A stretch of DNA of 64,000 bases. Origin: a virus (Duplodnaviria > Caudoviricetes). Every line of letters begins with the position of its first letter. Within the stretch, counting starts at the first letter, position 1. Both the position numbers and the translations under genes were made by a program. Where the stretch lies: positions 160,001 through 224,000 of the IMG/VR virus record IMGVR_UViG_3300020576_002947; one strand, written 5' to 3'. This document shows, piece after piece, positions 13,004 to 53,938 of the stretch. Below the pieces are notes generated by a model. The model did not search any database, was not told the DNA's origin, and saw only the letters and a list, made by a program, of their open reading frames with translations.

Positions 13004-16000
13004 ATGTTTCCAAAACGGTCTAATGATACAGATGATTATAAGGGTCTAAGTAAGAAACAAGGCTCAATTAAAGGATTGGAGTCTATTAGATTAGATTTCA
13101 AACTAAAAGAGTTTTGGGTAACACAGAAGACTAAGGATGCTATGGCTAAAGACGTAGCTAACTCCTTAAACACCTTAAGTGGGTCAACAATTCACTATAA
13201 AACTCTTCCTGATAACTCTCGTCCTCAATGGGTTGATACCCTTAGCAATTTAAGTGATAGTCTTAATGGATTAGCTAGATTTAGTACCTCCCAAATTATG
13301 GGTGCTTTAGATAATTCAATTAATGCAACTAAAGATATGATATTAGAGGCTTCAAAAGTTTATCTAATGTTTAATCCTCAAATGCACAAACGAAACGGAG
13401 AACTAACTTTTACAGGGCAGGTAATGGGTAGGATTTATGATGTACACAAAGCATCATTCCAAACGGAAGCTACTAAAAATGCTCTTGAAGCAGCTTGGAA
13501 TTTAATGAATCCTAAGAGTGGTAAGTACGAGATGGTTAGTTTCCAAGCTAAAGTTCTTACTGTAGAAAACCCAGCACTTATAAGTGAAATGTTGTATGGT
13601 ACGAAAGGTGGTCTGAAGGATATGCCAGACTTTTCTGACTTACTAGGTACTATCGTTAAGGGAAGAGACGGTCAGCTTCTTTTTGTCACTGACGCTAGAG
13701 TATTTGCTCAGCTAGCTATTGATAATGATGGAGACGTAATTCAATTATCAGTACTAAAGAAGGTAGGGGAGTCTATCACAACATCAGCAGAGTTTGCATT
13801 CTACCAAAAATCCCCTGGTTTAAGAACAAATGGAGGCGTTAGACTATTAAACGGTCTTCTATCCCAACAATTGAGTGGTGCAGCAATAGATGCAGCAGTT
13901 ACTGACCCAGTTACAAAAAGACAACTAGAACTAAAGAGGCTTAAAGCAACAACCGACTTAACCCTTTATGCCCGCCAGAGATTCTTTGGTGCCCAATTAG
14001 ATGCTTTTGGATTAAATACTACAAATACCCCTGAAAGTCCTTATAAGGGGACAATGGATTATCGTTACAGCAAAAGTGATCTACTAAAAACTGGTGCTGG
14101 TTTAATTACTACTGGGGCCAACGGTAGATCACAATTTCCTGATATAAAAGAGATATTTGCTTTTGAGGAAGGTGGTGTAAAATTTATTGGAGATGACGCC
14201 TTATCCCCTCAAGCACTACCTTCAGGGGTAAGATCTATTTTAAGAGGAGCCTCCAGAGGAAAAGAAGTTGCCTTTTGGGAAGGTTACCGAGGAAAAGACC
14301 TATCAAACAAAATGTATGCTCAAGAGTATGCTTTTGGTGGTTATGCTAAAAAGCAGGCCATGAAAGAACTAATTCCACAAGTGCGTAGCAACAAACAGGT
14401 GGGTCTTTTAACTAATATGGTTTGGGTTAAGGAAGTCTCTGAAATCATGCAAAGCATGACAGATAAAGGGGATTTAAATAACATGATTGATCAACTGGAT
14501 ACTGCGTTTCTAAAGGCGGTAAGTGATCATGTTAGTTCAGGAGACATAGATCCTAAAGCATTAGCAAAGATTAGAGAATCTGCAGGAATGCTTGCTACGA
14601 TTACCTCAAAGTTAGGCTTAGGAGACAGACGCTTTAAAGTACTAGAGCTACAAGCACTAAAAGCAGGTATTGGAGGAAAGGCACAGACAATCGGAGCGGA
14701 CGCAAGTCTTGTTTGGGGAGAAGAGGCACAAAGAGTTTTTACTGAATCAGCCAGTTTGTACCTAACTAAATCTAAATATTTTTCTGGTATGAGCGTAACC
14801 CAGTTATCAGAAGTACTAGAAGATATGATGACGGGTAACTCTCGATACTTAAAGTCAGTAGGACCTGATTTCATTACTCAAATGACTAACCCATTTGGTA
14901 GCGTTCTATCTAGCTTTGAATCTGGCGGTGACGGAGCTGTAACTAGAGAAGTAAAACCAAGAGAATCTAAAATTAGGACCGATTATTCTAAAGCAGCTCT
15001 TGAGAAGAGAGCCCAAAGTAGACCTCTTGCTCATGTACTAGATCGTAATGGAGCAAAGAAAACCAAAGGAGCTTTAGATTATTTAATTGAAGCGGGTATA
15101 CTAGAAGTACATAGATTTGATATGAGCGCAGAGACTATAGGTGCTGAAAATTTAGGCCAACTACAGAGAATGGCTGGGCAGAATCCTGTTTCTTCAGTTA
15201 CAATTGTACAAAGGGACGCTGCGGGTGGTTATAGAAGCTGGGGAAGTAATCCTGGAATTCAAGCTACAGATACAGCAGCAAGACAAGCACAATTACTAGA
15301 AAACTCAGTATGGAGACCTACAGTAATGCTAGCGAATGCAAATGGTCTCGCTTTTGATAATACTACCCCACCTGAAGATATAATACCACTATTTCTTGAC
15401 CCCTTAGAAGCAGTAAGAAAAGCAACAGAGAATGTTTCAGGTATAATTGGTCTCGAAACTCAACAAAAAGGTGGTAAAGGAGTAAAAACACACTATAGAT
15501 TTAATATAGGTGATTTTAGTGGTGCAGCTATTAATAACGATGGTATGCCGGAAGCTAGTGGTATTACTCTTAAATCATTCAAAGACGATGAAAAGCTTCT
15601 TGAGAACGCCTTAAGAGGGTACTCCTCAAAGAAAGATTTCGATAATGGTGATATAAAGAAGATTCTTAATCTTGATGTTGAAAGCGAGATTAATAGAAAG
15701 GGTTTAATGGACTACGCAAAGAATCTATTAAACAGGGCCTTAAATGAGAACGACAAAGAAGCAGAGATTAAATTTAAAAGACTAGTCACTGGTGGGTTTA
15801 TGAGGTCTTATGCAGGACAAAGTTTTGAAAGAAAATTCAATGCAGCTGTTGCATCAGTAGCAGGAGAACTAGCACACCAAACGACACTAACTGTTCAACC
15901 AGGTGGAGGAGTAGGTTTAGGTATAAATCAAAATTCTGATGTATGGAGCAGAGGTTCTATTACTATAACAAACGAGTATGGTGATATTGTTGATGAACGA

Positions 16001-17662
16001 GACTTAGCTGATGGTATTATTATAGCACAGAAGTGGTTAAACTTAAGAATAGGTAGTAAAAAATCAGGACCACTAAATGCTGCGGCAAGAGCATTCCTCT
16101 ACGATCCGACCAAACCATCGTCTGTTGCAGATAAAAGAGGTAGTAAAATATCTAGCCAGGCTATTGCTGGCGTAGAAATAAAAGCTACGGTAGCTTACTT
16201 TATGCCAGATACTTTTCTTCAAGAACAGGGTGATGATCTTACTAAAAAGATTTTCAAAGGTAACGCAGATGAGTGGTTTGAGCACTTTTATTTAACACTG
16301 GCTGAAGACAAATCAGGTACTTACGAAGATCTATCCAATAAACAGAAGTTTCAGGGACAGGGCGAGCTTTTTCTTACCCCTGCAGGTGCAGCTAAAGTTA
16401 AAGCTCAACAAAAACTTAAAGCTGGAAAACTGATTGAGTACGAAGGAATACCACCTATGAAAGATCAGTTAAGTAGAAAAGCCCAAATGTTTTACGGCAA
16501 ATGGTATTATGTTCTTAGCGAAGAAGAGTTAGTTTCTGACGCTAAACTTGTAAATACTGCTGGCTGGTTAAAAGCTATGCCAATAGGAATTACAACTCAG
16601 TATACCATGAATCCTACTGGTGGCGGTGCAAAGCAAAACATTGATATGATGATAAGTCTTGGTGAGGTTTTTGCTAAATCCACAGGAATTAATCAACTAC
16701 TTATCCACCATGCCAATGAGCTAGGATTAACGTCAGAAGAAGTTAAAACCAAAATGGAAAAACATAGGGCTAACTTCCAAAAAGCTGTTAGCACTGGTGA
16801 TGATAAAGCCTTAAAAGGTCATATTACTGCAATGCTTGAGGACTTTGGATTAATGAAAGAAGAGGTAGAAGAAATAGATGAACAAGGGGTAGTAAGAAAA
16901 GCATCAGCTTGGGTTTTTGGCAAGCGTGATGAACGGGGTAATGCTGCGTTAGCGGATACCACAGTAATCTCACTTACAAATGTTGCAGAACACCTAGTAG
17001 CAAGAGAAACTTGGGATGAGAACTTGCAACGCTTAGTTATAAAAGGTGCTGAGTCAACCCAAGTTATGAAAGGAGGTTTAATGAGCCAGGATGTAATCAA
17101 TAAAATCTTTGGTGATGGTGCTGTTAAAGCATTTGACCTTTTCTCAGTACTTGGACGTGATGGTGAGGAAGGTTTAATAAAGAGCTTCGCAAGAGAGCTT
17201 AATCCTGGTGTGGTAACACTTACTGATAATATGATTGCACAGGCACGGCAAACACTGCAGGTTGGGTTTGTTGCAGTTGCTCAGCAGGAGTACACGGGAG
17301 CTGCGGAAAAGGCTACTGAGCACCTAAGATCGCAGCTAGGCCTATTAATGGATGCTAGACTTGAAATTCTTGATGCTATTAGTGGGGGTCAGATTATACA
17401 GGGCTTAGGTAGTATCAAAAAAGAAACTCACCAGCTACAAGCAATAGCCCATAGCATAGGCCTAGCAAGTCAAGCACAAAAACTTGGTACTATAGGTAAA
17501 GAATTAGAGGGCAAATCTGAAAACATGCTCCACTATCTAATGAAGAGTACTCCTGCTAATGGTAAGCTAGCAATAGCTATGGCCGCCACAGCAGCAACTG
17601 CTACAGCCTTTGCGATGAGAGGAAGAGTACAGGCTAAAAGAGAAGAAGCTCGTACCAGGTAG
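13004..17662 (+). CDS. Putative virion-packaged single-subunit two-barrel RNA polymerase (permuted domain order)
   Basis: DNDGD (aa 240-244), KSP (269), VGLLTN (466), ELQALKAG (548), GQGELFLT (1118), K1181-LVNTAGWL-K1190 and D1214-MMISLGEVFA-K1225, matching beta' and beta catalytic-barrel motifs; collinear with the 800-aa protein. Confidence 0.75.
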   Translation: MFPKRSNDTDDYKGLSKKQGSIKGLESIRLDFKLKEFWVTQKTKDAMAKDVANSLNTLSGSTIHYKTLPDNSRPQWVDTLSNLSDSLNGLARFSTSQIMGALDNSINATKDMILEASKVYLMFNPQMHKRNGELTFTGQVMGRIYDVHKASFQTEATKNALEAAWNLMNPKSGKYEMVSFQAKVLTVENPALISEMLYGTKGGLKDMPDFSDLLGTIVKGRDGQLLFVTDARVFAQLAIDNDGDVIQLSVLKKVGESITTSAEFAFYQKSPGLRTNGGVRLLNGLLSQQLSGAAIDAAVTDPVTKRQLELKRLKATTDLTLYARQRFFGAQLDAFGLNTTNTPESPYKGTMDYRYSKSDLLKTGAGLITTGANGRSQFPDIKEIFAFEEGGVKFIGDDALSPQALPSGVRSILRGASRGKEVAFWEGYRGKDLSNKMYAQEYAFGGYAKKQAMKELIPQVRSNKQVGLLTNMVWVKEVSEIMQSMTDKGDLNNMIDQLDTAFLKAVSDHVSSGDIDPKALAKIRESAGMLATITSKLGLGDRRFKVLELQALKAGIGGKAQTIGADASLVWGEEAQRVFTESASLYLTKSKYFSGMSVTQLSEVLEDMMTGNSRYLKSVGPDFITQMTNPFGSVLSSFESGGDGAVTREVKPRESKIRTDYSKAALEKRAQSRPLAHVLDRNGAKKTKGALDYLIEAGILEVHRFDMSAETIGAENLGQLQRMAGQNPVSSVTIVQRDAAGGYRSWGSNPGIQATDTAARQAQLLENSVWRPTVMLANANGLAFDNTTPPEDIIPLFLDPLEAVRKATENVSGIIGLETQQKGGKGVKTHYRFNIGDFSGAAINNDGMPEASGITLKSFKDDEKLLENALRGYSSKKDFDNGDIKKILNLDVESEINRKGLMDYAKNLLNRALNENDKEAEIKFKRLVTGGFMRSYAGQSFERKFNAAVASVAGELAHQTTLTVQPGGGVGLGINQNSDVWSRGSITITNEYGDIVDERDLADGIIIAQKWLNLRIGSKKSGPLNAAARAFLYDPTKPSSVADKRGSKISSQAIAGVEIKATVAYFMPDTFLQEQGDDLTKKIFKGNADEWFEHFYLTLAEDKSGTYEDLSNKQKFQGQGELFLTPAGAAKVKAQQKLKAGKLIEYEGIPPMKDQLSRKAQMFYGKWYYVLSEEELVSDAKLVNTAGWLKAMPIGITTQYTMNPTGGGAKQNIDMMISLGEVFAKSTGINQLLIHHANELGLTSEEVKTKMEKHRANFQKAVSTGDDKALKGHITAMLEDFGLMKEEVEEIDEQGVVRKASAWVFGKRDERGNAALADTTVISLTNVAEHLVARETWDENLQRLVIKGAESTQVMKGGLMSQDVINKIFGDGAVKAFDLFSVLGRDGEEGLIKSFARELNPGVVTLTDNMIAQARQTLQVGFVAVAQQEYTGAAEKATEHLRSQLGLLMDARLEILDAISGGQIIQGLGSIKKETHQLQAIAHSIGLASQAQKLGTIGKELEGKSENMLHYLMKSTPANGKLAIAMAATAATATAFAMRGRVQAKREEARTR

Positions 17663-17672
17663 TACGAGCTTC
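17645..17672. terminator. Hairpin between convergent genes
   Basis: Perfect 11-bp stem GAAGCTCGTAC/GTACGAGCTTC overlapping the stop codon. Confidence 0.6.
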
Positions 17673-19139: not shown

Positions 19140-19643
19140 TTAGGTCACCTGTACTCCTCTTCTTCTGGGAGTTTCTCCCCCTCCACCACCCCAATCCTCT
19201 GTTAGGAGGACATCAGAGTCGTCTAGAAGTCTAAATTCAGCCATCTTAGCCTTCTGCTCTATACACCCAAAGATCGAAGCTCTCATTGAGAATCTCCAAT
19301 ACTGAGCAGCAATCCCTGGTGTTGGATTTTTAGTTTCTCCCGTATATGTACAACCTAAAGGAGAAGGAGCCATACCCATTGAGATAGAAGTCCAAGAGCT
19401 TCCGTCACTAGAGTACTCCAAGACCCTTGTTACGGGCTCATTAAACTCAATATAAGTAGATACTGTGGCTACTGTTGGTGGTGAGGACCCAAGATTCCAT
19501 ATCGCACAGATCTCAGCGTTGTGAATCTCATCACTTTTGATGACTTCATGGTAAGTAGCATTACTACTGTCGGTTAAGACGGTACTATCTACTAGTGTTC
19601 CATTATCTACAGCTAACTGGTAGCCTTCAGCCCATTTTGGCAT
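19140..19643 (-). CDS. Tail-fibre-associated beta protein (galactose-binding-like)
   Basis: LEYSSDGSSWT and AQYWRF motifs recall F5/8-type beta sandwiches; coupled to the fibre gene. Confidence 0.45.
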   Translation of the reverse strand: MPKWAEGYQLAVDNGTLVDSTVLTDSSNATYHEVIKSDEIHNAEICAIWNLGSSPPTVATVSTYIEFNEPVTRVLEYSSDGSSWTSISMGMAPSPLGCTYTGETKNPTPGIAAQYWRFSMRASIFGCIEQKAKMAEFRLLDDSDVLLTEDWGGGGGETPRRRGVQVT

Positions 19644-22600
19644 TACTGTTCTTCAATCTCCAGGTAAACGGTGAACTTAGCATGTGTAGCATCAAGTGCG
19701 GTGAAATTAACTCTCAGCCATGCATCCGATGCTAATGTTGTTGTTGAGAAGGTTGTGGTGCTTGCTTCGTAAGTTGAGCCACCAGATAAGCTAACATCAC
19801 CACCAGTATGAATGTTGGTAGCAGAGAAAGCACCAGTTCCATTATAGTACTCACAACGTACTGTCGTAGTTCCAGCAGAAGCCGTATTAACTCTTACTCG
19901 GAGTTTCTTAGGTGTCCAGTTAGTTCCAGCATCAGCAAGCCTTGGAATAGGAATTTGAACGTCGTCTGCACCTGAAGCAGTAGGGGTATAGGCTGAGAAG
20001 AAGACAAGAGTTCTACGTTCTTTCTTAGCACTAATCTGCCCCTGTAGTTTTCCAATACCCTGTAATACTGTATCACCAGCAACTACTACTGAGTTGGATG
20101 AAGAGAGACCAGTTAATGTACAAGCTCGTACAGTTGCGTCGAAGTCACTAATCTTACTGGCTGTTAGTGTTGGAATATCTCCAGCAACCAAAGCTCTAAA
20201 TGCAGGAACTGCTGAAGCTCCTGAAACAGGACCAGCAAAGACCAGTGAGCTAGCTTGATTAGCCCAAGCTGCTGTAAGAGTTCCAGATGAGGTAACGGGA
20301 GAACCTGTTACTGAGAACTGTGCAGGAAGCGAAAGAGCAACTGATGTAACAGTTCCTGTGCCTGCGGGAGTCTGCCAAGTACCATCACCTCTTAGGAACT
20401 GGGCACTTGTACCTACTGTTAAGGCACTAAGGTTTCCTGTAGCATCAGCCAGAACAACCTTATTACCCGTACCAGTAAAACCAGTTACGTTGATTGTTCC
20501 GGTAGAGAGAATTCTCATTCTCTCAGTAAGGGTTCCTCCTGTTGCTGTATAGAATACTAGACTTGCAGCGTCTTCGTTTGTTCCAATCTGAAGTGCCTCG
20601 ATTTTTGCATTTTCCTTAGGTGCAGTTGAACCAGCCCACCATGAGATTTTTCCAATCGTGCCACCGTCAGCAATAGCATTGGAGTCAGTAAACATCTCAA
20701 GGATAGGATAGACGGACGCTGTGTTTCGAATTTGCAGTCCGTTGTAACCAGAACCTGACAGAATAGTGTTGAGGTTGAATGTGAACGATGACCCGCCAAT
20801 GATGGTGTTCATCAGCCTGGTGTTTCCAGCATTAACCCACAAACTCCAAGGATTCGTCAGTGTGACATTTGTTCCAGCAACTGGAGGACCGCTTATGTAG
20901 GTGTTTACAGCATTTGTGTAGGTGACTGCTGAGTTAGTAGCAGCCAAAACTCCACCGCCAAATGAGTTGATGGTGTTCAGGGCAACAGTTGTGCTAGATG
21001 CGGTGCTAGTATCTGTAAAGATTGCACTGCCAAACCTAGCATTGATGCCATTTGAACCCCACGCCGTGCCAGAGTTGTTCCTAGCAACAAGAAAATTGAC
21101 TGGCACGGCTGATGTTCCAATCATGACGGGATTCTGGAAAAAGTTTCTCGCCCCAATACCAACTGCGTAACCCTCATAAACGCCCCAGACGTTCGTCGGG
21201 TAGGATGCTGTACCCGTTCCGACAATCTGCAATCCATACGAGTTGGAAATTGTGAAAGTTGCTGGATTAGTAAAATCAGTTAGTACTCTGACTCCATATG
21301 AGTTAGTTACAGTACCAGAACCAGTTGCGGCACTAGAAGCACCATGAATAAAGTATCCAGAGTAGATGTTGGAGAATATTCCAGCATGGGTAGATGTAAC
21401 TATCTTACAGTCAGAGTATACCCCAGCTATTACACCAGATATAGTCTTACCGGAGGCTACAGAACTATTAGAAAGGCTAAACCATCCACCATACTGGTTA
21501 GTAGCTGAAGTATCATTATAAGTGCTATTTACGTAGCTAAGGAAGCCATAATGTGTTCGTGCTGTAGTTGTGTTGTGAGTTGGAGTGGCAGAGAACTGAC
21601 CACCAGCAACAGCTACATCAGTTCCAGAGTTACCAACAGTTAGTTTTGAGGTAGCTGAGGTGCTTCCGAGCCCAACAAAACCAGCATTATTAACCGTAAA
21701 GATACTCGTTGTATCACTATTAGTTATCCTAAGAGCATCTGTGGAACTAGTATTCCCATTTCCCTGTATCTGTACCCTATGACTTCCGCTAGGCACAAGA
21801 CCAAAGCCAGTCATTCCAGCACCATCGGTATATACTGCGTTAGCATTTGCATCTGTAGCTACATTAAATGCAATTGTATTAGTAGTTGTACCAGTGGTTG
21901 ATACTTGAAGACCGTGCCTATTACTAGTACCTCCTGAGTGTCTAATAATAGCAGCGTAGTTTGCGTCACCTGCTGTCCTGGTAGCTGTAAACTGTCCTAT
22001 TGCAGCTACTACACCATCGTTTCTACAGGTAAAGTAAGCAGCTCCTGAATCAGGCCACACTCTTAACCCAAAACCACCTGAAGTAGCATCCGTACCAGTA
22101 ATTGTTAGTCTAACACCAGAGGATAATGCCCCTCCAAAGCCAGCCTCAGTACCATTAAATTGGAAGTTTGCATTCGTACTTAGACCACTAGAAGTACTGT
22201 TATAAACAAAGCAACCATCGAGTAAGCTCGAAAGATTTAACCCTGTGATAGTTGGGGTGTTTGGAAGTGAGAACGTTAGTCCTGTGGCGTCTTCGGTAAT
22301 GGTGATTTGATCAGTAGTACCAAAGAAGTTCTTTTTGGTAAAAGTGTCAGTTCCTGTCTGAAATACAGCACCGCTTGCAGTGTCTAGACCTGCCAATGCG
22401 GTTAGTGTGGAGTCTAAGCCTTGTGCATCACTAATACCGTATCCTGCTAGAGTAGTTGGAACACCAGAAGTAATATCTCCCCATGCGTGTACATGCGAGC
22501 TAGGGGTAAATGAGGTTGGAACACTTGTTAGAGTAGACCACGGTACATCAGTAATTCCATACCCAGCAAGAGTTGTAGGAACACCCGACGTAATGTCAGA

Positions 22601-25600
22601 CCAAGCATGGACGTGTCCAGTGGCAGAAATGCCTGCTTCTGCCAAAGTATTGTTGATCCAAGCAGTACCATTCCACTTGAGGATTTCGCCCGATGAGTTT
22701 GAAGTGATCGTAACGTTGGAGTGAGAATCCAACGTATGAGCAGCGGGGGTAAAAGATGAAGGAACTGAGGTAAGCTGTGACCACGCAATACTCAAAGCCG
22801 CCTGATGCTGCGTGACGTTCGATTGAGCAATTCTTGCGTCAGCAAATGTGCCAGTTGTGATTTTAGCTGTGTCAAGGTTCGGAACGTCTCCTGAGCTGAT
22901 GGTGCTGAGGACGATATTGGTTCCGTCGCCTCTTAGGAAGCTTCCTGATGTTGCTAGCCCGTTAACTCTGAATCCAGAAACTGCGTCAACAGCAGCTCTG
23001 AATGTCATGTTTTTGTCAAAATCCCAATAAAAGTCGTCTCTTGCTCCTGCGGGATATCCTCCATACCAATCCATTCGGTAAATGTCAAGATTGTTGGAGG
23101 GATAGGTGCCGTTCCAGGTTGGAATGAAAGTGACCCTTACATATTTGTAGTGGACCCCTGGTGTTGGACTATAACGCCAAGGAATTGTCGCGTGGCTAAC
23201 GAAGAAGTGCCCTGGCCAAGTGCTTGCCGTGTTGGTGGGTCCAGCATGTGTTACCCAAGTCACATTGTCTTCTGATTTTTCAATCAGAACCGCAGCAGAA
23301 TGTCCATTCGTTGATGTGTACGCATAAAATGCATTGATATACACGTAGTTGCTTTTATAGTCGCCAGCACTTTTGCTCCACGTGAACCTGATGCCGTACT
23401 TGCCATTCGCCAATGTGATGGCGCTTCCTGTGCCGCGACCAATGACGTTGTTTTTCATAGCAGCCCCTGATGGAGAGGTTGCATGGGCGGTCCACACTGA
23501 TCCATCAGTGCTTTCTTCGATAGACATTGGGAGATGGAATTTAAGCTTGTTATCAAACTGACCGTCAACGACAGCCGCTTCTAACGCCGAAGGAGAACCT
23601 AAGTTGCCCCTCAGCAAGCTGTTGTTTACTGGAGGAATGCTCTGAGCCAAAGGCACTACGCCTGAGGTCAAGTTCGATGCGTTCAGGGCCGTGAGTGATG
23701 TGCCAATTCCTGCGAATGAGTTGGCGGTCATCGCGCCAGAAATGGTTACTGCTGATGGAAGACTAATTGTTGGGTTGCCAGAAACACCATCGCCATTCGT
23801 GATAGTGATCTGGTTGGTGGTGCCTGTTAAAGTCCTCTTGGTAAACGTATCAGTTCCAGTTTGTACAACAAGTCCTGCTGTGGTGTTCAATCCAGCCAAA
23901 GCTGTAAGAGTTGCATCAAGACCTTGTGCGTCAGTTATTCCGTACCCTGCTAAGGTTGTGGGAGTTCCTGTAGTGATATCAGACCATGCGTGAGTATGAC
24001 CAACAGCACTAATTCCTGCTTCAGCCAACGTATTATTGATCCAAGCACTTCCATTCCACTTCAGAAGCTCTCCTGAGGAGTTGGAGGTGATGGTTACGTT
24101 AGAATGACTGTCAAGAGTATGAGCCGAAGGTGTAAAATCAGCAGGAACGCTAGTAAGATCGCCCCAAGGAACACCAGTCTGCCAAGTTTTATCTCCTTTC
24201 CAATACTGCCCTGAAGTCCCAGCAGTGATAGTGCTTTCTTTATTGTCGAGCTGTCCTTGTGCTTTACCAAAGGCAGTTAGCACTGAATCAGCAGCAGTAA
24301 TAGCTGTATTGGAGGAAGCAAAACCAGTTAGTGTAGTAGCTCGTACCCGTGCGTCTGTAAAATAAAGGTTTCCACTTTCTGTTACCTGAGCAGTGGTGTA
24401 ATCTCCAGAAGAAGCTACAACTGTACCAGTTCTTCCAAAAACAGAAGAAACACCAGAGATCATCGAGGAAATATTGCCAGAAAGCTTTTGGATAGCAGAT
24501 AAGATGCTATCTGCGCTGCTTACTGTGCCACTAGCTGCTGAATAACCTGTTAGGGTTGCTGCAATAGCCCTAGCGTTAGTGAAGTAGAGATTAGTATTCT
24601 CTGGAACAGCTAGGGTATCAAGAGTCTGATTAGTTCCATCTCCTCTTACGTACTGTGCAGAAGTTCCTAGTGTGAGAGCAGAAAGATCACCAGTAGCAGA
24701 AACCTGTACGAATCTACTTCCAGTTCCAGACAATCCAGTAACATTTACTGTCCCTGTGCTGCCAATTCTTAGCCTTTCGGATAGTGTTCCACCAGTTGCA
24801 GTTCTGAAGATAATATCAGAAGCATTTTCAGTAATCCCTGCTGCAAGGAACTCAATTCTACCCATCTCAACAGGAGCGCCATAACCACCCCAAGCACTAA
24901 TCTTACCAACTACACCACCATCTGGGATAGCTGTTGTAGCCCTCCAGAATTCAAAGGTAGGTTCAATTGCTGTACCTCCTCTAATCTGAACTCCAGTAGC
25001 TCCGCTTCCTGCTAGAACATTAGTATTGGGGGTAGTGGCGTCAAAAACACTACTTGTTCCAACAAATAAATCACCACCAAATCTAGACTGCCCTGTGTAG
25101 GCATTGAATGTCCAAGGGTTTGTTATGGTTACGTTTGTACCAGAAGTAGGAGGTCCTGCGATATACAGGTTGTAAGCATGAGTGTAAGTTACTCCAGTTG
25201 CTGTAGACGCTAGTGTTGGAGTAGCGAAACTATTTGCTGCATTATGTGTTACTGTTGCACCAGCTACGGTGCTAGTGTCAGTCAGAGTACCATTTTGTAC
25301 TCTGAACAGCATTCCATTAACACTCCAAGCAGCTCCAGACATGGATTTGGAGATAACAAGTGCTGCTGATCGTGTTGTGGTTCCAATCTGAACTGGAGAT
25401 GCGAAATAATTGGCAGCATTTGCTGCTGTACCATATGCCTCGTATACACCCCAAAGGTTTGTTGGATAGCTCGTAGATCCATTGGCTACAATATGCAAAC
25501 CGTAAGAGTTAGCTATTCCCAAACTAGTAGGAGCTGCAAAGTCAGTAAGTACTCTTACTCCATAAGAAGAGGTGATCGCACCGCTACCAGTAGCTGTAGA

Positions 25601-28600
25601 TGTAGCACCATGAACAAAGTACCCACCCATCTGACTTGTTACAGTTCCAGCGTGTGAAGCAGAGGAGATTCTTGCATCACCTGCTACACCTATGACAGAG
25701 CCAGAGTTAGTGAATCCTGAAGTAGTATAGGTATCTGGTAGGGCAAAATACCCACCATATATCGAAAGTGTTGAGTTAGATGCTGTTACAATAGCAGCAT
25801 TACCCAGAACCCCATAAAAGGTTCGGGTGGTTCCATCTGAGTTTGTGGAAGTAGACGTAAAACTACCACCACCTACATAAGCATTATTAGCCGTATGCTG
25901 TACTATAAGCTTAGCAGTTGTAGAAGGTGTCGTACCAAAACTAGCGTATCCAGCATCATTAACAGTAAATAGTTGCGTAGTGGCTGAGTTAACTAAGTGT
26001 AGGGCGTTTGTGCTACTTGTACTTCCTAATCCAGAAATTAAAAGTCTTGTGTTGTTTTGGAGTGAACCAAATCCAGCAGAGCCATCATCCCTAACCTGAA
26101 GTAATTGAGTACCAGCACTATTTTCTACTCTAAATGCTTGTGTTGAGCTAGTACTACCTGAGCCCTTGACCAGGAATCTATAACTAGCTACATCTGTGGA
26201 GCCAATTGAGAAGAATCCGTTGATCCCAACTCTAAAGAGTTCAGAACTACCTGACTTCAATACAAAGGGGACTCCACCTGAAGAGTAAGAATGTGCTAAT
26301 CCCCAAACAGCATTAGTCTGGTCCACAAATAAACCCCCTCTCCTGTTATTAGTGCCATCATTAACAGCAGCACCTACAGCAGCAACTCCTGTAGTTTGCA
26401 CATTGTAGATTTGAGGTGTTACGGTGCCACTAGCACCATCAGGAATAGCTCCAGTATAGGTTAAATCACCAACTCGGATGTTATATGGAGCATGAACTGC
26501 ACCATCGTTTCTTACAGTGAATAGTCCTGAGCCAGCAGAGCTATAGACCTCAATGGAGTTCGTTGAAGACGTAGCACCTAATCCATGAATACCTAGCTTC
26601 TTAGCTACTAGTAGTCCAGGTGTAGAGGTTGGGGTGAAGAAAGTGCTATAGCCAACGTTTAGATCGTGTGCATATTCTACTGTAGGAGCTTCATCAAGCC
26701 CTATCATCTCACAACGAGCTACATCCCATTGAATAGCAGCATTGGTACCTGCTAGGTAGAAGTATCCAGTCTGAGCAAAAGATCCTCCAACACCGATTTG
26801 TTGGAGTATGAGGTATTCCTGCCAAGCACCAGTACCTATTGCTGAAGATAGCCATACGTTGGTAGAACCAGTTCCAATTGCGTTAGTTGCAAAAGAAAGG
26901 GTGTAGCCTGATGGAATCTTAGCCCAAACTCGGTATAAGATCCTCTGTCCTTCTAGGTATCCCCTACTACCTGAATTTGGAAGTGCTTTGCCTAAACCTA
27001 CATAGAAACCACCACAACCTGGGTTACAAGTAGTTCCATCGTAGTTGATTCTTAGAATATTACCAGAATGGTTTGGTGCAGTGGAATCTGCTGAGACTGA
27101 GTGTGTTACACTACCATTAACCAGGTTGTTATAAACAGTATATCCTGTGGCACCGTGTAACATGTCAGTGTTACGGTTGATTACCCTACCACGAACATCT
27201 GTAATTGGAGAAGTTGATCTTAGTCCAAACGAGGCAGAAGGGTAAATAGAGTATGGCCTATAACCAGTTACTTGAGTAAAGGAGGGGGAGGATGTTGTCC
27301 CGATATCCTGTACTGTACCGATAACAGTGTTTCCACTGACTCCATTACCATACGTTATTGTTGTTTGGTTAGCAGTTGCAGTTAAAGTACGTCTAGCAAA
27401 AGAACTAGCTCCAGTTTGTACTAGATAACCAGTCGTACTATCCAAAGCTCCAAGTGCATTTAGATAGGCGTTAGTAAGCGTTGTGTTTAGTGTTATGTTG
27501 GAAGATCCATCAACTGATGCACTTCCTGATACAGAACCACTTAGTTGAAGTGTTCTTGCTGTCTGCCAGGCATTTGCTGTTGAGGCATTTCCTTGAAGAT
27601 CAGCTACAAGAGTAGCAGTTGTGTAGCCACTTCCTCCAATATTAACTGTTGCAGATGGTTCTACTGTTAGGCCAGTGAATAATCGGTATAGATTGGAGCC
27701 CGCATCTCGGAATAATCCGCTAAACTTATCGGTTCCGTCGTTGTACTTGCCATAGAATCCAATATCAACTACATCAGCAGCATTATCAGACGCTAGTTTA
27801 ATTAATGGGTCTGAGACTGAGATGCTTGAAGCACTAATGCTGGTCAAAGCACCTGTGATAGTGACGTTACCAGCGATATTAACGTCAGCATTGATGTCGA
27901 AGGAGCTTGAGGTCTTTGTAAGGGCATCGTAGTAGCTGATGCTGTTTGTTGAGTCCCAAAAAGCTAGTTTATTGAGTACACCAGTACCAGAAACACCACC
28001 CAAACCTGTTACAGAGATCGCTTGTGTGCTTGCACTAGTGAGTCTACCCTTGCTGTCTACTGTGAAGGTAGGAATTAATGAGCTGCTACCATAAGAGCCA
28101 GAGCTAACAGTAGTGTCTGATAGGCTAAAGTTCCATGATCTATTAGCTGTTAGATCAAGAGCACTGGTATTGCTGATTGTTATATCAGGAGATCCAGATA
28201 GTTGGAGAGTACGGGAACTTATAACTCCGTCTGTTATTCCATAACCAGCTAAGGTAGTAGGTACACTAGTTAACTGTCCCCAACCAATACTAAGTAAAGA
28301 CTGGTGCTGGGTAACACTACCAGAGGAGATTCTTGCGTTAGCAAAGGTTCCAGTAGTTATCTTTGAAGCATCTAAGTCAGGTACGTCACCAGAACCAATT
28401 GTACTAAGGACAATATTAGTACCGTTGCCTCTTAGGAAGCTTCCAGAGGTAGCAACTCCTCCCAGTCTAAAGCCACTAGCTGCATTTACATAGACTGAGT
28501 TAACTATCCCACTATTAGTAACTTGGAATGAGTCAGTTCTACCATTACTAGCTGATGCAATCAGAGGATAGTCAGCAGCATCTAGATTAAGCTGCGTGAT

Positions 28601-30142
28601 TGTCTGGCCTGTGAATGCTGGAAGTGTTGAAGTGGCTGGGGTAGTTAGTGTCCATCCAGAGCTTTGGTAGTTTTGTTCACAAACAACGTAGATTGTTACA
28701 TCATAATCTACGTATACCTCAAGAATAGCACCCTGGTAAGTATCCCCTTCAACAAGACGAATCTTAGTAATTCCACCATTACTGCTATACCAGCTTCTAT
28801 TCCAAAGTGTTAGTGAGGGATTTCTTCCATAATTATACGCAGCGTAGAATGTCGTGGCACTATGTTGTCCGCTAGTTATATCATAGACCGTAAAGAACGC
28901 TGATGCTCGATTACCACTTGAGAGAGAATCAGGATTGCCATTGGTTGCGATTCTATACCAAAAACCTGAAACCGCAGGGCCAGATACTCTCTGAACTCTT
29001 GCAGCGGTAGTTGCTGCTGACCCATGTCCTGAGTCAAGATGAGCACCATCTAGATAATCAGCATTGAAGTTAGTATTAACTGTTGTTGAGGTGACAGCAA
29101 GCGGTGATGTGCCTGTAGCTTGAGAAAGTGTCTGCCGTACAAAAGTTGGTGATGCTCCTGAATGAAGATCCTGGGGTCCTGTTAGAACTATGTTCCCAGA
29201 GACACCATCTCCATTTGTAACAGTAACTCTATTGGTGGTTCCTGTTATAGATCTAGCTGTAGTAACACCAGCAGATGTTCGTACAACAATACCATTGGAC
29301 CCTGGATCATTTAACCCTCCAATAGCAGATACACTAGACCATACTGGAACTCCACCAGAGACCGTTAGAACAGTGCCACTAGCACCGATTCCTAGTCTTG
29401 CAAAGGTGTCTATGCCACTTCCATAGATCAGGTCACCACTTACCCAGTTAACTGCTGAGAGGCCTGTGAGAGCGGCGTCTAGAGGCTGTTTATTGCTAAA
29501 CTGGGTTTGGATGTTGCTTGTAACACCGTCTAGATATTGGTATTCTGTATTAGATACGCTACCATCACCGATCTTAGATGCATCAATACCGCTTGGAATA
29601 TCAGAAGCTGTGATATATCCAGCAACATAAGCAGTTCCATTACTTTTAAGAAATGATGATGAAGGTGCTGATCCATTTATCTGATATCCTAATGCTGTTA
29701 AATTGCCTGTATCATAATCCCATTCAAAATCTGTTGATTGGGCTAGCTTTTGCTCTGAATTTATAAATAAAACTGATTTGGGATTGCCTGCATAGACCAT
29801 TGTCTCATTAGCTATGAGACTTGCGGTAGAACTGGACCAATCTAAGAGACCTCCACCTAGATTTATTAATACATCGCCACTTGATCCTTGTGTTGTAGGA
29901 AGAGTTAAGGTATAACCATACGCTGGAGCAGCAGGAGGTTCTATTCTAATATTAAAAATAGAACTAAAGTCTACATGAGAGGCTGATAGTCCACTAGTAA
30001 GATTTAAACCAGATGAAGTAAAGGTAAAACTATCAGAACCTACTAGGCTACGCCCATCAGAGTATGCGACCTGACCGTCAGTTATTCTACTAGCGGAACT
30101 ACTAGAGATCGTAAGCGGTGTATATAATTCCTCTCGACGCAT
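19643..30142 (-). CDS. Giant tail fibre / receptor-binding protein (3499 aa)
   Basis: Thr/Ser/Gly-rich; repeated [28 protein letters not shown] and [11 protein letters not shown]...TLTA fibre motifs; internal duplications. Confidence 0.85.
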
Positions 30143-34927: not shown

Positions 34928-35225
34928 AGCTACAGTTATCTTCTATCATACCCTTAAACTGATCCTGATACTCCTCCCAATCCATCAACTTAAACTCCTC
35001 AATAATATCATTGTCATTAGCATAGGCAACTAGTACTTGTCCCTGTGTAATAAGATAGCCATTAATAAAACCTAGAACAGATGCCCACCCATGAGGATCA
35101 GCTTGAACAGTAGGATGATCTTGCATACCATCACCTAAATAAACTTTCCCAAACAAGAAGTTACTAAAGGCCATAGGATTAATAGCGTTGACACTTTCCA
35201 AATACTTCAAAAAATCAGCATTCAT
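34890..35225 (-). CDS. Hypothetical protein with Cys-rich acidic tail
   Basis: ATG at 35225 overlaps the upstream stop (ATGA); ends CSCDSCECNC. Confidence 0.55.
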   Translation of the reverse strand: MNADFLKYLESVNAINPMAFSNFLFGKVYLGDGMQDHPTVQADPHGWASVLGFINGYLITQGQVLVAYANDNDIIEEFKLMDWEEYQDQFKGMIEDNCSCDSCECNCGDDE

Positions 35226-36265
35226 ATAGAGTAATGTAGCTCCCAATCCTTATGTGATTTTCTGTACCCATGAACGACCTTAGTAATAGCAGAAGGCTTA
35301 ACACCTGCCAACCTACAGAAATCAGCAATCTTAAAACAACTAACGATCTCACCGGTAACAGTATTCTTAAAAGAAATCTTAGACTGATTATCTAATGAAT
35401 ATCCTTTGTACGATTTAATCTGACCGTTAATTAAAAGACTTAACCTCTTACTAGGAATACTATACTTTTTTGAAAACTCTGAAACTGAATTAGCTTCATA
35501 CACAATACCATCAGCATCAACTAATCGAACAACTTTAGAATATTTCTTTGGTTTATTTGGTGACAAAGTGTAGCCCTTATATGAAACTTCTCTTCTAGTA
35601 ACCATAGAATAAAAAGAAGAGTGGTTTAGATTATTATCTCTGCAAAACTGAGCTATATTTGTAAGAATGATTTCATTGCCCTCAGGATCATATACAGTAA
35701 CAGTTCTACCTATAGGTGTCTTAGGCTTTATCTCTTTAGGTATCGTATTAGGAACCTCACCTAACCTATACCAACCTTTATAAAACTTCTTATTACCCCC
35801 TAGAACTTTTTGAACATCTTTATAGCCAGGAAGACTATACTCTTTACAAAATTTAGCTATATTAGAAAATTCTACAATAGTACCATCAATATGCTGAAGA
35901 GTTTTAATTTTTAGAGGAATTGAAATTTTTTCCTGTCTTTTTACTCTTTGTTTCCTTAGTAGTAAAGGACTCTCATAAAAAGTTTGATAATAGTTCTCAA
36001 GATTAGTAAGATCTTCTACAGGACATGAGGCTAGTAATTCGAAAGAAAAATCTTCCCTTCCAAAAAGACTATGAGACTTATTTAGTTCTACTATAGTGTG
36101 TCTGTTATAGTGAGCATAGACCATGTGCTGCGATATACGCTGTCTTACATCTTTAGAAGATCCTACATAGTATTGTCCTGTAGAAATAATATTAATCTTA
36201 TAAACACCAGAGCCTTTATTATTATCTCGAAACTCATTGTATGTTAGAGATTTATTGTAAACCAT
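35222..36265 (-). CDS. Free-standing GIY-YIG homing endonuclease with four tandem DNA-binding repeats
   Basis: GVY...YVGSS...R...H...E catalytic domain; four ~45-aa repeats of type G....N/S..FC/S...L....YKG(W/Y). Confidence 0.9.
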   Translation of the reverse strand: MVYNKSLTYNEFRDNNKGSGVYKINIISTGQYYVGSSKDVRQRISQHMVYAHYNRHTIVELNKSHSLFGREDFSFELLASCPVEDLTNLENYYQTFYESPLLLRKQRVKRQEKISIPLKIKTLQHIDGTIVEFSNIAKFCKEYSLPGYKDVQKVLGGNKKFYKGWYRLGEVPNTIPKEIKPKTPIGRTVTVYDPEGNEIILTNIAQFCRDNNLNHSSFYSMVTRREVSYKGYTLSPNKPKKYSKVVRLVDADGIVYEANSVSEFSKKYSIPSKRLSLLINGQIKSYKGYSLDNQSKISFKNTVTGEIVSCFKIADFCRLAGVKPSAITKVVHGYRKSHKDWELHYSI

Positions 36266-50137: not shown

Positions 50138-50228
50138 AGAAAAACCTTCAAACATTGCTATACATATTCATTGGAGCAGTTATTGGATTTATCTTTGCTT
50201 CTATTGGTATTGCACTATTGAGCTTCTC

Positions 50229-50630
50229 GTGAGTTTAAACGTAACAGCATCAATTATCATTATTGTTATTGAATCTAAAGAAATTGAAATCTATTACAGT
50301 AACAAACCACCTCAGGGTACTGAGGACAGAGATGTTATTGAAATTGCTACATCAAGCGGTTCTTTTAATGTTCTGAAATGTACAGACATTGAGGAAATCA
50401 AAAAGCTTGACCTTAAAAAAGTCGTTCTAAACTTTAGTGATGACGACTGGTTCACAGCATATAGCGATCTATTTGAAGCTACTATCTATGCTATAAATCA
50501 AACACCATTAATGCCTAAGCGGCAGGCTATGCAACTATTCATTGATATTACTAAGTTCTTAGAACTTAATATTAAAGCTGTTGATGAACAGCTCGACAAA
50601 TGCGCTCAGAGAATGATTGATGGTTTCTGA
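50229..50630 (+). CDS. Hypothetical protein
   Basis: GTG at 50229 overlaps the stop of a 32-aa TM peptide (50134-50232). Confidence 0.5.
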   Translation: MSLNVTASIIIIVIESKEIEIYYSNKPPQGTEDRDVIEIATSSGSFNVLKCTDIEEIKKLDLKKVVLNFSDDDWFTAYSDLFEATIYAINQTPLMPKRQAMQLFIDITKFLELNIKAVDEQLDKCAQRMIDGF

Positions 50631-51069
50631 AAAACAAACTATTATTCTTATGCATGGACTTCCTGGATCAGGTAAGTCAACAAGAGCTAATGAAATTAAA
50701 ACCTATTACACTCTCAACAATACCACTTGTGAAATCTGTTCTGCAGATTCCTATTTTATTGATGATAGGGGGAGATATAACTTTGATCCCACTAAACTCC
50801 ATCTTGCACATAAAACCTGTATCGACTCTGTTATTCATCACCTGTCAAATAAAGTAGAAATTGTTATCGTAGACAATACGAATCTTAAGAAGTCAGATAT
50901 CCAACCGTATGTTAACATTGCTGAGAGGCTAGGTATTACTATCATATCAGAAGAACCATCCACACCTTGGAAGGATGATCCTATTACATGCTCTGAGAAA
51001 ACGGTACATCAAGTACCACTTCATACCATTGAGCGTATGAAGAAGTTACAAGAAACCCCGCCATTTTAA
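50617..51069 (+). CDS. P-loop polynucleotide kinase (AAA_33/N4BP2-like)
   Basis: HGLPGSGKST, SADSYF, VIVDNTN, H.VP...I.RM. Confidence 0.85.
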   Translation: MMVSEKQTIILMHGLPGSGKSTRANEIKTYYTLNNTTCEICSADSYFIDDRGRYNFDPTKLHLAHKTCIDSVIHHLSNKVEIVIVDNTNLKKSDIQPYVNIAERLGITIISEEPSTPWKDDPITCSEKTVHQVPLHTIERMKKLQETPPF

Positions 51070-51122
51070 TTAGCAATAAAGCACAAAAAATATTAATCTA
51101 TCCATAGTGTGGAAAGGACAAC

Positions 51123-51545
51123 ATGGGTTACGCATTTTTAGGAAGCGCTTTCGTTTTATCTTGGCTGTTTGCCTATTTTGAATTGTTATTGGTTACCAAA
51201 CTAAATCTTAAAGGCCTTGCCTTAAACCTTCCACTATTTGATTTCTTTTTCTCAATCCCTATCGCAATTTTGCTAGGTATTGGCTTTAATATTAATGGTG
51301 CTGTAGCTGGAATGGCTATGACACTTGCATCATTCTGGACTCTGTTCTGGTATGCTCATTGGAAGCGTAAGGAATTCAACAGATTCTATGATGGCAAGAA
51401 GCATAAGCTATGGAAATCTACGCTTGCAAAGGAACTCGACAAGATCAGGAATGATATTGAAGAGGGAACATTTATTGGTCAAATTTTAATAGATCAGCTT
51501 AAGGAAAAGGAAGCCAAGTTGAAGAAGGAGCTTAAGTGCAAGTAA
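51123..51545 (+). CDS. Multi-TM membrane protein with coiled-coil tail
   Basis: AAGGA RBS; overlaps the start of the polymerase gene. Confidence 0.6.
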   Translation: MGYAFLGSAFVLSWLFAYFELLLVTKLNLKGLALNLPLFDFFFSIPIAILLGIGFNINGAVAGMAMTLASFWTLFWYAHWKRKEFNRFYDGKKHKLWKSTLAKELDKIRNDIEEGTFIGQILIDQLKEKEAKLKKELKCK

Positions 51546-53938
51546 ATTATCAAGAGTATGAATGGTATGGACAACCTGTTGTCATTCCGTTCAGAGTTAT
51601 TGGTGAGAAATCTGTTATTGGCAAGGATGGTAAAGTGTCAAACGTTAAGCAGATCAACGAAGGAATCAAAGCGGCAGCAGACCGTGAAGATTTCCCTAAG
51701 TTGATTGATATGCTTGAGGACCAATACTTTAAGACATTGAGAATGGTCACTGGTATTCCTGTTAAAGGACACTATGGACCTGTCTTTACATCTGCAGACA
51801 TTGCACCTGAGTATTACTTCACAACTCCAGAAGGAGGAACAGTAGTTAATGAAGATCTTATGACTTCCAGAGCTGTTGACAGTGATGGAGATCATGCTCT
51901 AAGATCTAATCTAAAAGATGCAAATGGAAAATACTTTAAGCATAGGGAAGCTATGTTTATTAAGTTTCCATTTACTAAGAAGGTTCCTGTTCTTAAGGAA
52001 CTTCCTGGTAAGTATCCATATACAACTTTCACACCTGTCCCAGAGGACAAGGAAATCGTTATTACTGATATGTCTGAGAAGTACAATCTTGATGCTCTAG
52101 TTGAAAAAGCTAAAGATGTTCTTGCTATGCCGCTTGTCGGACCAACTGACAACTACTTTGATTATAAGGAAGCAATGGCCGTTAAGGATCTTGATTCCTA
52201 TCATATGAAAGTCCAACATCTGTTTGAAGACGAAGACAGATTTCTTGCTATGGAGGGAGATATGAAAAAGGTTCGCGGAGGGAAGATGGAGAAAGTCGAA
52301 ATCCCCCGAAGGCGAAGCATTGGGACACTTCCTACATGTTGGATTTTGGGTATGGCTAGGGGCAAGTCCTATTCACTACTTCCAGAAATTAAAGATGCTA
52401 TCTATATGATGAGGTATCTTGAAGGTATGGAATTTGAAACAGTCGAATCAGCGCTCTCTCGAAGAGACGATGAGGTGTTCCCCATTCCTAAGAAACTCGA
52501 GATCAATTCTAAAGGGCACGGCATTGTTCAAAGACTTATTGATCTCAAACTTCTAACCATTGAGAAGATTCCACATGCAGTCCCAGGACTGTTTGTATCT
52601 GTTATTAGATTGTATACTCCTAGTAAAGATTACAGAACTCTTCACCCAGTTGCTGTTACAGAAACTAAGAGAGACACTTCTGTTATGACTTACTGTATCG
52701 TAGTATCACCAATCGTGGTTAACTATGATAATCAGGTTAAGATTGTTCCTATTGAGTACGCTCTTGAAGCTCATCTCAATTCAGTTATGACATTTATGCC
52801 ACTATCAGGGGGCCATTGGCCTAGTCGATTGGATCATATCCACCAGAACCCTGTTAAGTCAGCTATGCTTGAGAAAGCTCTTAGAGAATTTCTCAGTAAG
52901 TATGGCTACTTCCTATATCATAATAAGACTATGAAGACAATGGCACTAGCCGTTGCTAAGAATAAGATTGCTGTCCATTTCCAAACTAAGAATCCACATG
53001 AGAAAGCTGCTTTCATGAAAGAGCTGAACATCAAGCTTAAAGCTACCAAGCTGGCTATTGTTCCATGTGGTGGAAACAAGAAAGGAACTGAACGTGCAAA
53101 CTTCAGTATTTGTGATCCTGTAACATTCTCGCCATTGTATGCGGGCAAGTACGCTGATCCAAAGCGTTCATGTCAGATTGCTTCTCAGCTTGCTAACGCT
53201 GTACCCCTACCCAGAAAGGCTTGTCTTGTTATTACAGGACGACCAGAAGATGGGAAGGGCACTGGCGGTCAGATGTTTATGACATCAGAGGGCGCTGAAC
53301 TAAGCAAACTATCTAACGTGTTTCTAAACTCATTGGTCTATCAGAAAGATGAGAATCATCAGCAACGAACAACATTCAGAAACTTTGCTGGAGAGGAATT
53401 TGAAGGCTGGCTTGGAGACCCTCAAGCGACTTCTGAAATCCCTAAAATCCTCAGCCCAATCGGACTGAAGAACATGGCTATGAGAATCTATAATAAGATT
53501 CAAGTACAGCATAATGGATTTTGGTTTGAACCTGATTTCCTGTTATCTCTGAAAGAGATTGAGGATAAGGATGCTTGGAATTCTCTTGTTGAGCATGGTG
53601 TCGAGAGATCATTCATGAACAACAATGGAGAAATTATTCCATGCTTCATCGTTTTCATAAACCTATATCGTTCTACTAATGCTTCAGAATGTGTCAAACC
53701 AGGTAAGAAGACCAGAGTGGTCTCAGGCATGGAAGCACATGCAATTAAGGAAGTTCTTTTAAATCATAATCTTGAGATTCCAGAATCAGAGCCTGACATG
53801 GAATATCTTGAAGCTATCAGAAAGGCAGTAGCGCAGATCAGAGATATCTGCAACCTGCCATTGCCCAATGTACCGGACGGCTTGTGTGCTGTTCGGGGGG
53901 CGGCGGTGGGTTCGGCGGAGGGTGCTGTCCCCTTGTAG
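51536..53938 (+). CDS. Putative non-virion minimal single-subunit two-barrel RNA polymerase (permuted domain order)
   Basis: AAGGAG RBS and GTG start; DSDGD (aa 115-119), KFP (143), VGPTDN (201), MEGDMKK (239), GTGGQMFMT (575), K637-ILSPIGL-K645 and D667-FLLSLKEIED-K678, with the same spacing as E. coli beta K1065/K1073/D1095/R1106. Confidence 0.75.
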   Translation: MQVNYQEYEWYGQPVVIPFRVIGEKSVIGKDGKVSNVKQINEGIKAAADREDFPKLIDMLEDQYFKTLRMVTGIPVKGHYGPVFTSADIAPEYYFTTPEGGTVVNEDLMTSRAVDSDGDHALRSNLKDANGKYFKHREAMFIKFPFTKKVPVLKELPGKYPYTTFTPVPEDKEIVITDMSEKYNLDALVEKAKDVLAMPLVGPTDNYFDYKEAMAVKDLDSYHMKVQHLFEDEDRFLAMEGDMKKVRGGKMEKVEIPRRRSIGTLPTCWILGMARGKSYSLLPEIKDAIYMMRYLEGMEFETVESALSRRDDEVFPIPKKLEINSKGHGIVQRLIDLKLLTIEKIPHAVPGLFVSVIRLYTPSKDYRTLHPVAVTETKRDTSVMTYCIVVSPIVVNYDNQVKIVPIEYALEAHLNSVMTFMPLSGGHWPSRLDHIHQNPVKSAMLEKALREFLSKYGYFLYHNKTMKTMALAVAKNKIAVHFQTKNPHEKAAFMKELNIKLKATKLAIVPCGGNKKGTERANFSICDPVTFSPLYAGKYADPKRSCQIASQLANAVPLPRKACLVITGRPEDGKGTGGQMFMTSEGAELSKLSNVFLNSLVYQKDENHQQRTTFRNFAGEEFEGWLGDPQATSEIPKILSPIGLKNMAMRIYNKIQVQHNGFWFEPDFLLSLKEIEDKDAWNSLVEHGVERSFMNNNGEIIPCFIVFINLYRSTNASECVKPGKKTRVVSGMEAHAIKEVLLNHNLEIPESEPDMEYLEAIRKAVAQIRDICNLPLPNVPDGLCAVRGAAVGSAEGAVPL

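Follow-up and report, generated by a model that had tools for sequence, protein, structure and literature searches.

Does one tailed phage encode two single-chain RNA polymerases (RNAPs) of the two-barrel type, with the barrels in the reverse of the usual order? Two-barrel RNAPs transcribe all cellular genomes, and the evolutionary path by which two barrels came together in one enzyme is still an open question. The locus that raises our question is a 64,000-nucleotide stretch of DNA (hereafter, the window), which corresponds to bases 160001-224000 of the IMG/VR record IMGVR_UViG_3300020576_002947. The record is an uncultured contig of 239,691 bp, with an estimated completeness of about 94%, and its source is a tailed jumbo phage. 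Two open reading frames (ORFs) in the window encode P0001 (1552 amino acids, aa) and P0002 (800 aa). An earlier note, made from the sequence of the window, had proposed that they are homologous RNAPs of a circularly permuted family, present as a virion and a non-virion copy. The coordinates, strand and lengths of both ORFs agreed with that note (Table 1). The results described below make it very probable that P0002 is a cell-type RNA polymerase in miniature. Taken together, P0002 is probably a compact single-chain DNA-dependent RNAP of the two-barrel superfamily, and P0001 a divergent homologue encoded among particle genes. For P0002, the interpretation in the earlier note is largely correct, and for P0001 it is probable.

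Motifs common to P0001 and P0002

The seven motifs that had been reported as common to both proteins were all located, and they are collinear (Table 1). Furthermore, an eighth common motif was found, LIEAGILEV at residue 694 of P0001 and LIDLKLLTI at residue 334 of P0002. P0002 had also been said to reproduce the spacing of the barrel residues of Escherichia coli beta exactly. By residue count, K637-K645-D667-K678 of P0002 does equal K1065-K1073-D1095-R1106 of beta. However, residue 678 is Lys and not Arg.

Conservation in the P0002 family

Fifty relatives of P0002 were recovered when 1.84 billion metagenomic cluster representatives were searched exhaustively with HMMER. Nearly all of them are 745-997 aa long, and their N-termini align with the GTG start of P0002. 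The family alignment comprises 48 sequences with 17-41% identity to P0002. In this alignment, D115, D117, D119, K143, P145, G202, E240, P392, G457, R544, G586, K637, K645 and K678 are invariant, and conservation is 90% or more at G118, R235, K244, Q551, G619, E674, R712 and E718. Thus, strict selection acts on both lysines and on the putative metal loop. Lack of DxDGD conservation in homologues had been regarded in the earlier note as a sign against its reading, and the three aspartates are kept in all 48 sequences. The DxDxD metal-binding signature is also present in P0001 (D240, D242 and D244) and in P0003, a close relative of P0001.

No match to P0001, P0002 or the P0002-family profile was detected in Pfam, PHROGs or the PDB sequences. 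When the 48 members were searched individually, no RNAP-related Pfam family appeared at E <= 1 and no RNAP-related PHROG appeared. The Pfam and PHROG matches that were obtained were isolated, with one member each and weak E-values, and no Pfam family was common to two members. The P0002 family is covered by no Pfam or PHROG model. A tblastn search of 50,697 phage records with the polymerase-candidate queries gave no match even at E <= 10.

P0002 is surrounded by small + strand genes of no assigned function, and the same holds for its relatives on other contigs. The contigs bearing the family members P0004, P0006, P0008 and P0012 are 3-14 kb in length and carry small ORFs without Pfam matches. 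No P0001-like neighbour was found on these four contigs.

The beta-like half of P0002

The structure of full-length P0002 was modelled by AlphaFold2 with the family alignment as input. The model had a predicted local distance difference test (pLDDT) value of 85.8 and a predicted template modelling (pTM) score of 0.83, the latter of which means a confidently predicted domain arrangement and nothing more. When this model was compared with the PDB by Foldseek, the top 50 matches were all RNAP second-largest-subunit (Rpb2/beta) chains. An unbiased structure search of 48,161 chains was also performed, and its top 9 matches were all second-largest subunits of the beta/Rpb2 type. In the same search, isolated domains of the double-psi beta-barrel (DPBB) type, 7dvc_A, 7dww_A, 7dbo_B and VAT-N, aligned to residues 556-715 of P0002. 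The hhalign comparison of the family profile with E. coli beta gave a single match, P0002 621-674 on beta 1049-1102 (E 0.063), in which K637, K645 and D667 are paired with K1065, K1073 and D1095, respectively. A beta-type barrel that supplies two conserved basic residues is found in P0002. In addition, the segment YRSTNASE...SGMEAHA appears, in a comparison by eye, to resemble ARSTG...GEME of E. coli beta. The segment overlaps the end (residues 721-725) of the beta-like structural match, and otherwise lies just C-terminal to it. Look-ups in the ESM Atlas gave no usable match, and the P0002 model that the Atlas provides was poor.

The beta'-like half of P0002

The N-terminal module of P0002 was folded alone with a pLDDT of 81.7, and DSDGD was placed between strands of the strand-rich region 74-155. 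No match was obtained by Foldseek with this module. In a wide VIA structure search, trivial helical hairpins that matched residues 197-250 made up most of the list. Only four matches were longer than 100 residues, and all of these were beta'-type largest subunits; for example, residues 41-213 of the model were aligned on 2pmz_A 232-828. The alignments to beta'-type chains reach from the barrel into what is presumably the bridge-helix region. The hhalign comparison with E. coli beta' gave a single match, family 95-124 on beta' 441-470 (E 0.045), in which the DxDGD of the family sits on D460/D462/D464 (DFDGD). Furthermore, counted in the sequences, a conserved A/G-P lies 33 residues before the first Asp in P0002 and likewise in E. 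coli beta'. In P0002, where about 115 residues precede the Asp loop, we detected neither a clamp nor a zinc-binding, flap or C-terminal beta' module. Together, these comparisons suggest that the N-terminal module is a minimal beta' core, in which helix 201-216 is a candidate for the bridge helix and helix 233-248 for the segment after it.

An EF-hand or Toprim reading of DxDGD was considered and rejected, because the loop lies in a part rich in strands, its spacing is beta'-like and a beta-like module adjoins it.

Module order and a split pair in the same genome

In P0002, the Asp loop (115-119) is ahead of the beta-like module (333-722), which carries the lysines at 637 and 645. In P0001, the Asp loop (240-244) is ahead of K1181 and K1190. 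In the single-chain two-barrel RNAPs that have been compared, the connector runs from DPBB-B to DPBB-A (PMC10770324). Thus, the order in P0002 and P0001 is reversed, as the earlier note had proposed. A Lys barrel ahead of the Asp barrel, as in enzymes of the QDE-1/YonO/gp66/P23-45 type, was found in neither protein. The author of the note had also been aware of no description of this order. In literature searches that did not reach many subscription papers, we found no account of a reversed or permuted order.

Outside the window, the genome encodes a pair of ORFs of 368 and 457 aa. By hhalign, the 368-aa ORF matched the Asp barrel of the P0002 family (E 0.01; RYPNLGP...GDADGD, with T-P-L in place of K-x-P), and the 457-aa ORF matched the Lys barrel (E 6e-4; R-x7-K and IDLLLD...AKGAL). 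Weak HMMER matches of the pair fall on the same two barrel motifs. From these alignments, the pair is likely a third, split copy in the same genome. As in the fused proteins, the beta'-like gene is followed by the beta-like gene. In contrast to P0002, the pair consists of two polypeptides and has Arg at the first lysine position, and the evidence for it is weak.

Since a beta'-then-beta split pair exists in the same genome, the fused order is most simply explained by the joining of neighbouring genes. The reversed order proposed in the earlier note stands, but fusion of genes that were already in this order is a simpler route to it than a true circular permutation. The beta half of P0002 looks far more like multisubunit beta than like QDE-1 or gp66. 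This resemblance suggests that P0002 is a miniature enzyme of the multisubunit type in which beta' and beta are fused, and not a permuted enzyme of the QDE-1 type. A single chain with beta' before beta and a cellular-looking beta half would mean that the fusion order is not constrained. As a more speculative extension, the genome might hold an independent cell-type RNAP line with the beta'-like gene first, represented three times (the split pair, the 800-aa fused protein and the 1552-aa virion-injected protein), although we regard this as doubtful.

Homology of P0001 to the P0002 family

With the hidden Markov model (HMM) of the P0002 family, P0001 and P0003 scored 16.7 and 18.7 bits, respectively, and the best of 3000 shuffles of P0001 scored 8.1 bits. 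When the family profile was searched against the 663 ORFs (at least 50 aa) of the genome, P0001 was the sole significant match besides P0002 (E 6.3e-5; the next, 0.3). The first HMMER domain places profile 173-336 on P0001 448-706, which includes VGLLTN, RRFKVLELQALK and LIEAGILEV. By hhalign, P0002 233-295 was aligned on P0001 541-608, and family 543-579 on P0001 1044-1073. The best hhalign match (E 0.0043) was family 577-678 on P0001 1119-1225 (LTPAGA, K1181...K1190 and IDMMISLGEVFAK), and the second HMMER domain is located there too. The HMMER domains, like the top three hhalign matches, are in collinear order and fall on the columns G202, R235, E240, G586, K637, K645, E674 and K678.

P0001 is closer to the family consensus (ITPSGxxK and IDLxxPxxExxxK) than to P0002, and ITPSGxxK fits P0001 better than it fits P0002. 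This is expected under true homology. Furthermore, in the first 466 residues of P0001, DxDGD is followed by K-x-P at the family distance, for which the chance expectation is about 5e-5. The profile score, the search of the 663 ORFs and the collinear hhalign matches bear out the claim that P0001 is distantly homologous and has its motifs in the same order. From these sequence comparisons, we consider true homology of P0001 to the P0002 family quite likely.

The only close relative of P0001 is P0003, which is 88-89% identical and encoded in a syntenic locus. No further relatives were found in word-index searches with the full length and with residues 1040-1300, in IMG/VR scans or in a metagenome scan. 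A complex prediction of P0001 170-720 with 1030-1300 gave a score of 0.00 and a partner pLDDT below 50, which argues neither for nor against a joint fold. P0001 has long extra regions, and its C-terminus is hydrophobic and basic.

Gene position and proposed roles

P0001 is the lone + strand gene inside a minus-strand block of particle genes. On one side of it are the terminase, portal and capsid genes and on the other a 3499-aa ORF, an arrangement that is also seen in the P0003 locus. By its gene position, P0001 is a candidate virion polymerase. In Thermus phage P23-45, duplication has given rise to a divergent pair of a virion and a non-virion enzyme (PMC10770324), which serves as a precedent, and the positions of the P0001 and P0002 genes would fit a pair of this kind.

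In the mechanism that we propose, residues 1-330 of P0002 would form a minimal beta'-like module, in which the DxDGD barrel is followed by helices acting as the bridge helix and an adjoining mobile element. This module would be fused upstream of a reduced beta-like module (333-722), consisting of N-terminal beta lobes and the barrel with K637 and K645. As in cellular RNAP, the catalytic Mg2+ would be bound by the three aspartates, while the nucleoside triphosphate and the RNA 3' end would be contacted by the two lysines at the barrel interface. The beta' fold of the N-terminal module, a joint active site and DNA-templated RNA synthesis by P0002 are predictions. P0001 would be a very divergent homologue, twice as long, with its modules in the same order. 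In the programme that we consider most likely, on the analogy of P23-45, N4, crAss-like and phiKZ-type phages, P0001 would be packaged, injected and used to start early transcription, and P0002 would take over transcription later. This putative virion/non-virion division of P0001 and P0002 is suggested by gene position only.

Scans for sigma-70-type consensus sequences around the P0001 and P0002 genes gave results at or below the shuffle level. TACATTA occurs upstream of genes in modest excess (9 versus 0.9 expected) and at variable distances, and is not upstream of P0001 or P0002. The most repeated 12-mer, GTyTGyATATGA, was rejected as a promoter, since it encodes V-C-I-stop with the overlapping ATG of the next gene. 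Its 22 sites are located at genome positions 3308-26933 and 226633-239248, outside the window, in tandem arrays of genes for 64-130 aa.

Alternative explanations

Several results weigh against reading P0002 and P0001 as related RNAPs. The direct BLASTP comparison of P0001 with P0002 was not significant, and the DxDGD region aligned at E = 2. Thus, homology is not proven by the motif list alone. Neither protein was tied significantly to a named RNAP family by any sequence method. The Foldseek E-values of the P0002 model were weak (1.7e-3 or worse), and the hhalign E-values against E. coli beta' and beta were about 0.05. The DxDGD segment of P0001 by itself was not significant by profile score, and the reverse search with the P0001 profile found nothing, so that membership of P0001 in the family is distant. 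Since a Sigma70_r2 protein is encoded, at least part of the phage programme may run on the host RNAP. The results on P0001 would be consistent with P0002 being the only polymerase and P0001 another structural or ejected protein, whose motif likeness arose by chance or convergence. Conservation of the P0001 motifs cannot be judged from one close relative, the protein is known from sequence in a two-row alignment, and noise among real proteins reached 9.5 bits with the family profile (a 116-aa ORF of phage ME3). However, the score of P0001 was about twice that of its best shuffle and significant genome-wide, and its matches are collinear on invariant family columns. P0001 also fits the family consensus (TPxGxxK and IDxxxxxxExxxK) better than it fits P0002, and it has an independent DxDGD and K-x-P, correctly placed. 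We therefore consider this explanation unlikely.

The P0002 family could be two-barrel polymerases of another task, namely RNA-dependent RNA polymerase, primase-like enzyme or PolD-like DNA polymerase. PolD chains were absent from the structure-match list of P0002. Furthermore, a family A DNA polymerase is already encoded by the phage, which makes a replicative role for P0002 or P0001 unnecessary, and we judge such a task very improbable. The extreme reduction of P0002, with its short segment before the Asp loop and no detected clamp, zinc or flap domains, might be expected of a catalytically dead relic or of a decoy for host transcription factors or nucleic acid that does not polymerise. In contrast, the strict invariance of the three aspartates and both lysines over 48 divergent sequences points to selection on catalysis, and there is hardly any likelihood left for a dead protein. 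A single-chain DNA-dependent RNAP is thus the reading that we prefer for P0002.

Comparison with known systems

P0002 differs from the non-virion RNAPs of phiKZ and AR9 (PDB 7OGP and 7S00) and from cellular beta/beta' in that it is one chain of 800 residues, whereas these enzymes have four or five subunits and several thousand residues. In addition, the beta'-like part comes first in P0002, and the peripheral modules named above were not detected. Separate beta and beta' chains with the beta gene first, as in the multisubunit type, were found for neither P0001 nor P0002. As in QDE-1, SPbeta YonO, crAss-like phi14:2 gp66 and P23-45 gp64/gp96, both barrels are in one polypeptide. If our reading is true, P0002 would offer studies of structure and mechanism an enzyme of very small size, and a tractable minimal model of cellular transcription.

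The best match to P0002 among viral models was a 798-aa protein of the cultured Acinetobacter phage ME3 (vB_AbaM_ME3; UniProt A0A172Q0S6; KU935715 224453-226849, minus strand). The Foldseek E-value was 3.6e-5 over 591 columns, whereas the TM-score was only 0.20. A 358-aa ORF (222114-223190, minus strand), about 1.3 kb downstream of the 798-aa ORF on the same strand, carries DVDGD and AVGLATN. No sequence-level link of the two ORFs to the P0002 family was found by profile search or hhalign. The two ME3 ORFs may be a cryptic split RNAP. Such an enzyme, if present, would be split and in the order beta then beta', unlike P0002. The weak structural link to ME3 is a possible experimental entry point.

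In a comparison of 224 jumbo phages in 2021, RNAPs were found only in group 1 and in two group 3 phages (PMC7824862), and according to a 2026 review most jumbo phages lack RNAPs (PMC13282480). The present results suggest that cryptic polymerases, missed by Pfam and PHROGs, may be encoded by jumbo phages other than those of the phiKZ and AR9 groups, which these two papers describe as having no RNAP of their own.

Genome and setting

Table 1. Coordinates of the features (window positions unless marked as genome positions; residue numbers are those of the proteins)
Feature	Residues	Position	Strand	Remarks
P0001, 1552 aa		13004-17662	+	ATG start; ORF list and translation
P0002, 800 aa		51536-53938	+	GTG start; ORF list and translation
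DxDGD motif	P0001 240 / P0002 115			common motif
FYQKSP / MFIKFP	P0001 266 / P0002 140			common motif
VGLLTN / VGPTDN	P0001 466 / P0002 201			common motif
RRFKVLELQALK / DRFLAMEGDMKK	P0001 542 / P0002 234			common motif
LTPAGA / MTSEGA	P0001 1124 / P0002 582			common motif
KLVNTAGWLK / KILSPIGLK	P0001 1181 / P0002 637			common motif
IDMMISLGEVFAK / PDFLLSLKEIEDK	P0001 1213 / P0002 666			common motif
Asp-barrel region, candidate beta'-type DPBB	P0002 74-155	51755..52000	+	strand-rich
DSDGD, putative Mg-binding loop	P0002 D115, D117, G118, D119	51878..51892	+	
K-F-P, invariant K-x-P	P0002 K143, P145	51962..51970	+	24 residues past D119
Two helices	P0002 201-216 (VGPTDN; G202 invariant) and 233-248 (R235, E240, K244)	52136..52279	+	predicted secondary structure, conservation
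Beta/Rpb2-like module	P0002 333-722	52532..53701	+	
Lys-barrel (beta-type DPBB)	P0002 556-715	53201..53680	+	DPBB domain alignments, conservation, hhalign
Catalytic-type residues	P0002 K637; K645; D667; K678	53444-53446; 53468-53470; 53534-53536; 53567-53569	+	
YRSTNASE...SGMEAHA	P0002 711-736	53666..53743	+	R712 and E718 at least 90% conserved
D-N-D-G-D, then K-S-P	P0001 D240-D244 and K269-P271	13721..13816	+	K269 25 residues past D244; kept in P0003
Counterpart of P0002 helices and linker	P0001 466-702	14399..15109	+	VGLLTN 466, RRFKVLELQALK 542, LIEAGILEV 694
Lys-barrel counterpart	P0001 1119-1225	16358..16678	+	LTPAGA, K1181, K1190, D1214, E1221, K1225
Ala/Thr-rich hydrophobic stretch	P0001 1521-1538	17564..17617	+	basic tail after it; seen in translation
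Perfect hairpin, 11-12 bp		17645..17672	both	spans P0001 stop codon between convergent genes; terminator-like either way
Split pair, 368 aa and 457 aa		genome 42825-43931 and 44140-45513 (outside window)		83-aa overlapping ORF between
Capsid gene		413-1654	-	
Portal gene		4917-6539	-	
Large terminase, intein-bearing		8085-10508	-	intein with LAGLIDADG domain; Intein_splicing E 1e-12
3499-aa ORF		19643-30142	-	no Pfam or PHROG match
Homing-endonuclease-type gene		35222-36265	-	GIY-YIG and NUMOD-like domain
Sigma-70 region 2 protein, 188 aa		60838-61404	+	PF04542, 29.5-31.2 bits, above cut-off
Homing-endonuclease-type gene		63231-63785	+	HNH_3 and double zinc ribbon
Family A DNA polymerase, 1196-aa ORF		genome 57631-61221 (outside window)	+	matches in four stretches over about 2.6 kb

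In the whole genome, PF00623 (RNA_pol_Rpb1_2) and PF00562 (RNA_pol_Rpb2_6) gave no match at E <= 1. The T7-type RNAP model gave no match in the genome either, and control genomes were equally silent, so that this search says little.

The structural genes of the phage (capsid, portal, terminase and the giant ORF) have distant relatives in the Acinetobacter jumbo phage ME3. The similarity of the 3499-aa ORF to the 5419-aa ORF of ME3 is local (32% over 140 aa, E 1e-9). In the contig bearing P0003, the counterpart of the 3499-aa ORF was called in pieces (1432 aa, then more). The terminase-intein arrangement recurs in the P0003 locus. The family A DNA polymerase may contain an insertion inside the enzyme.

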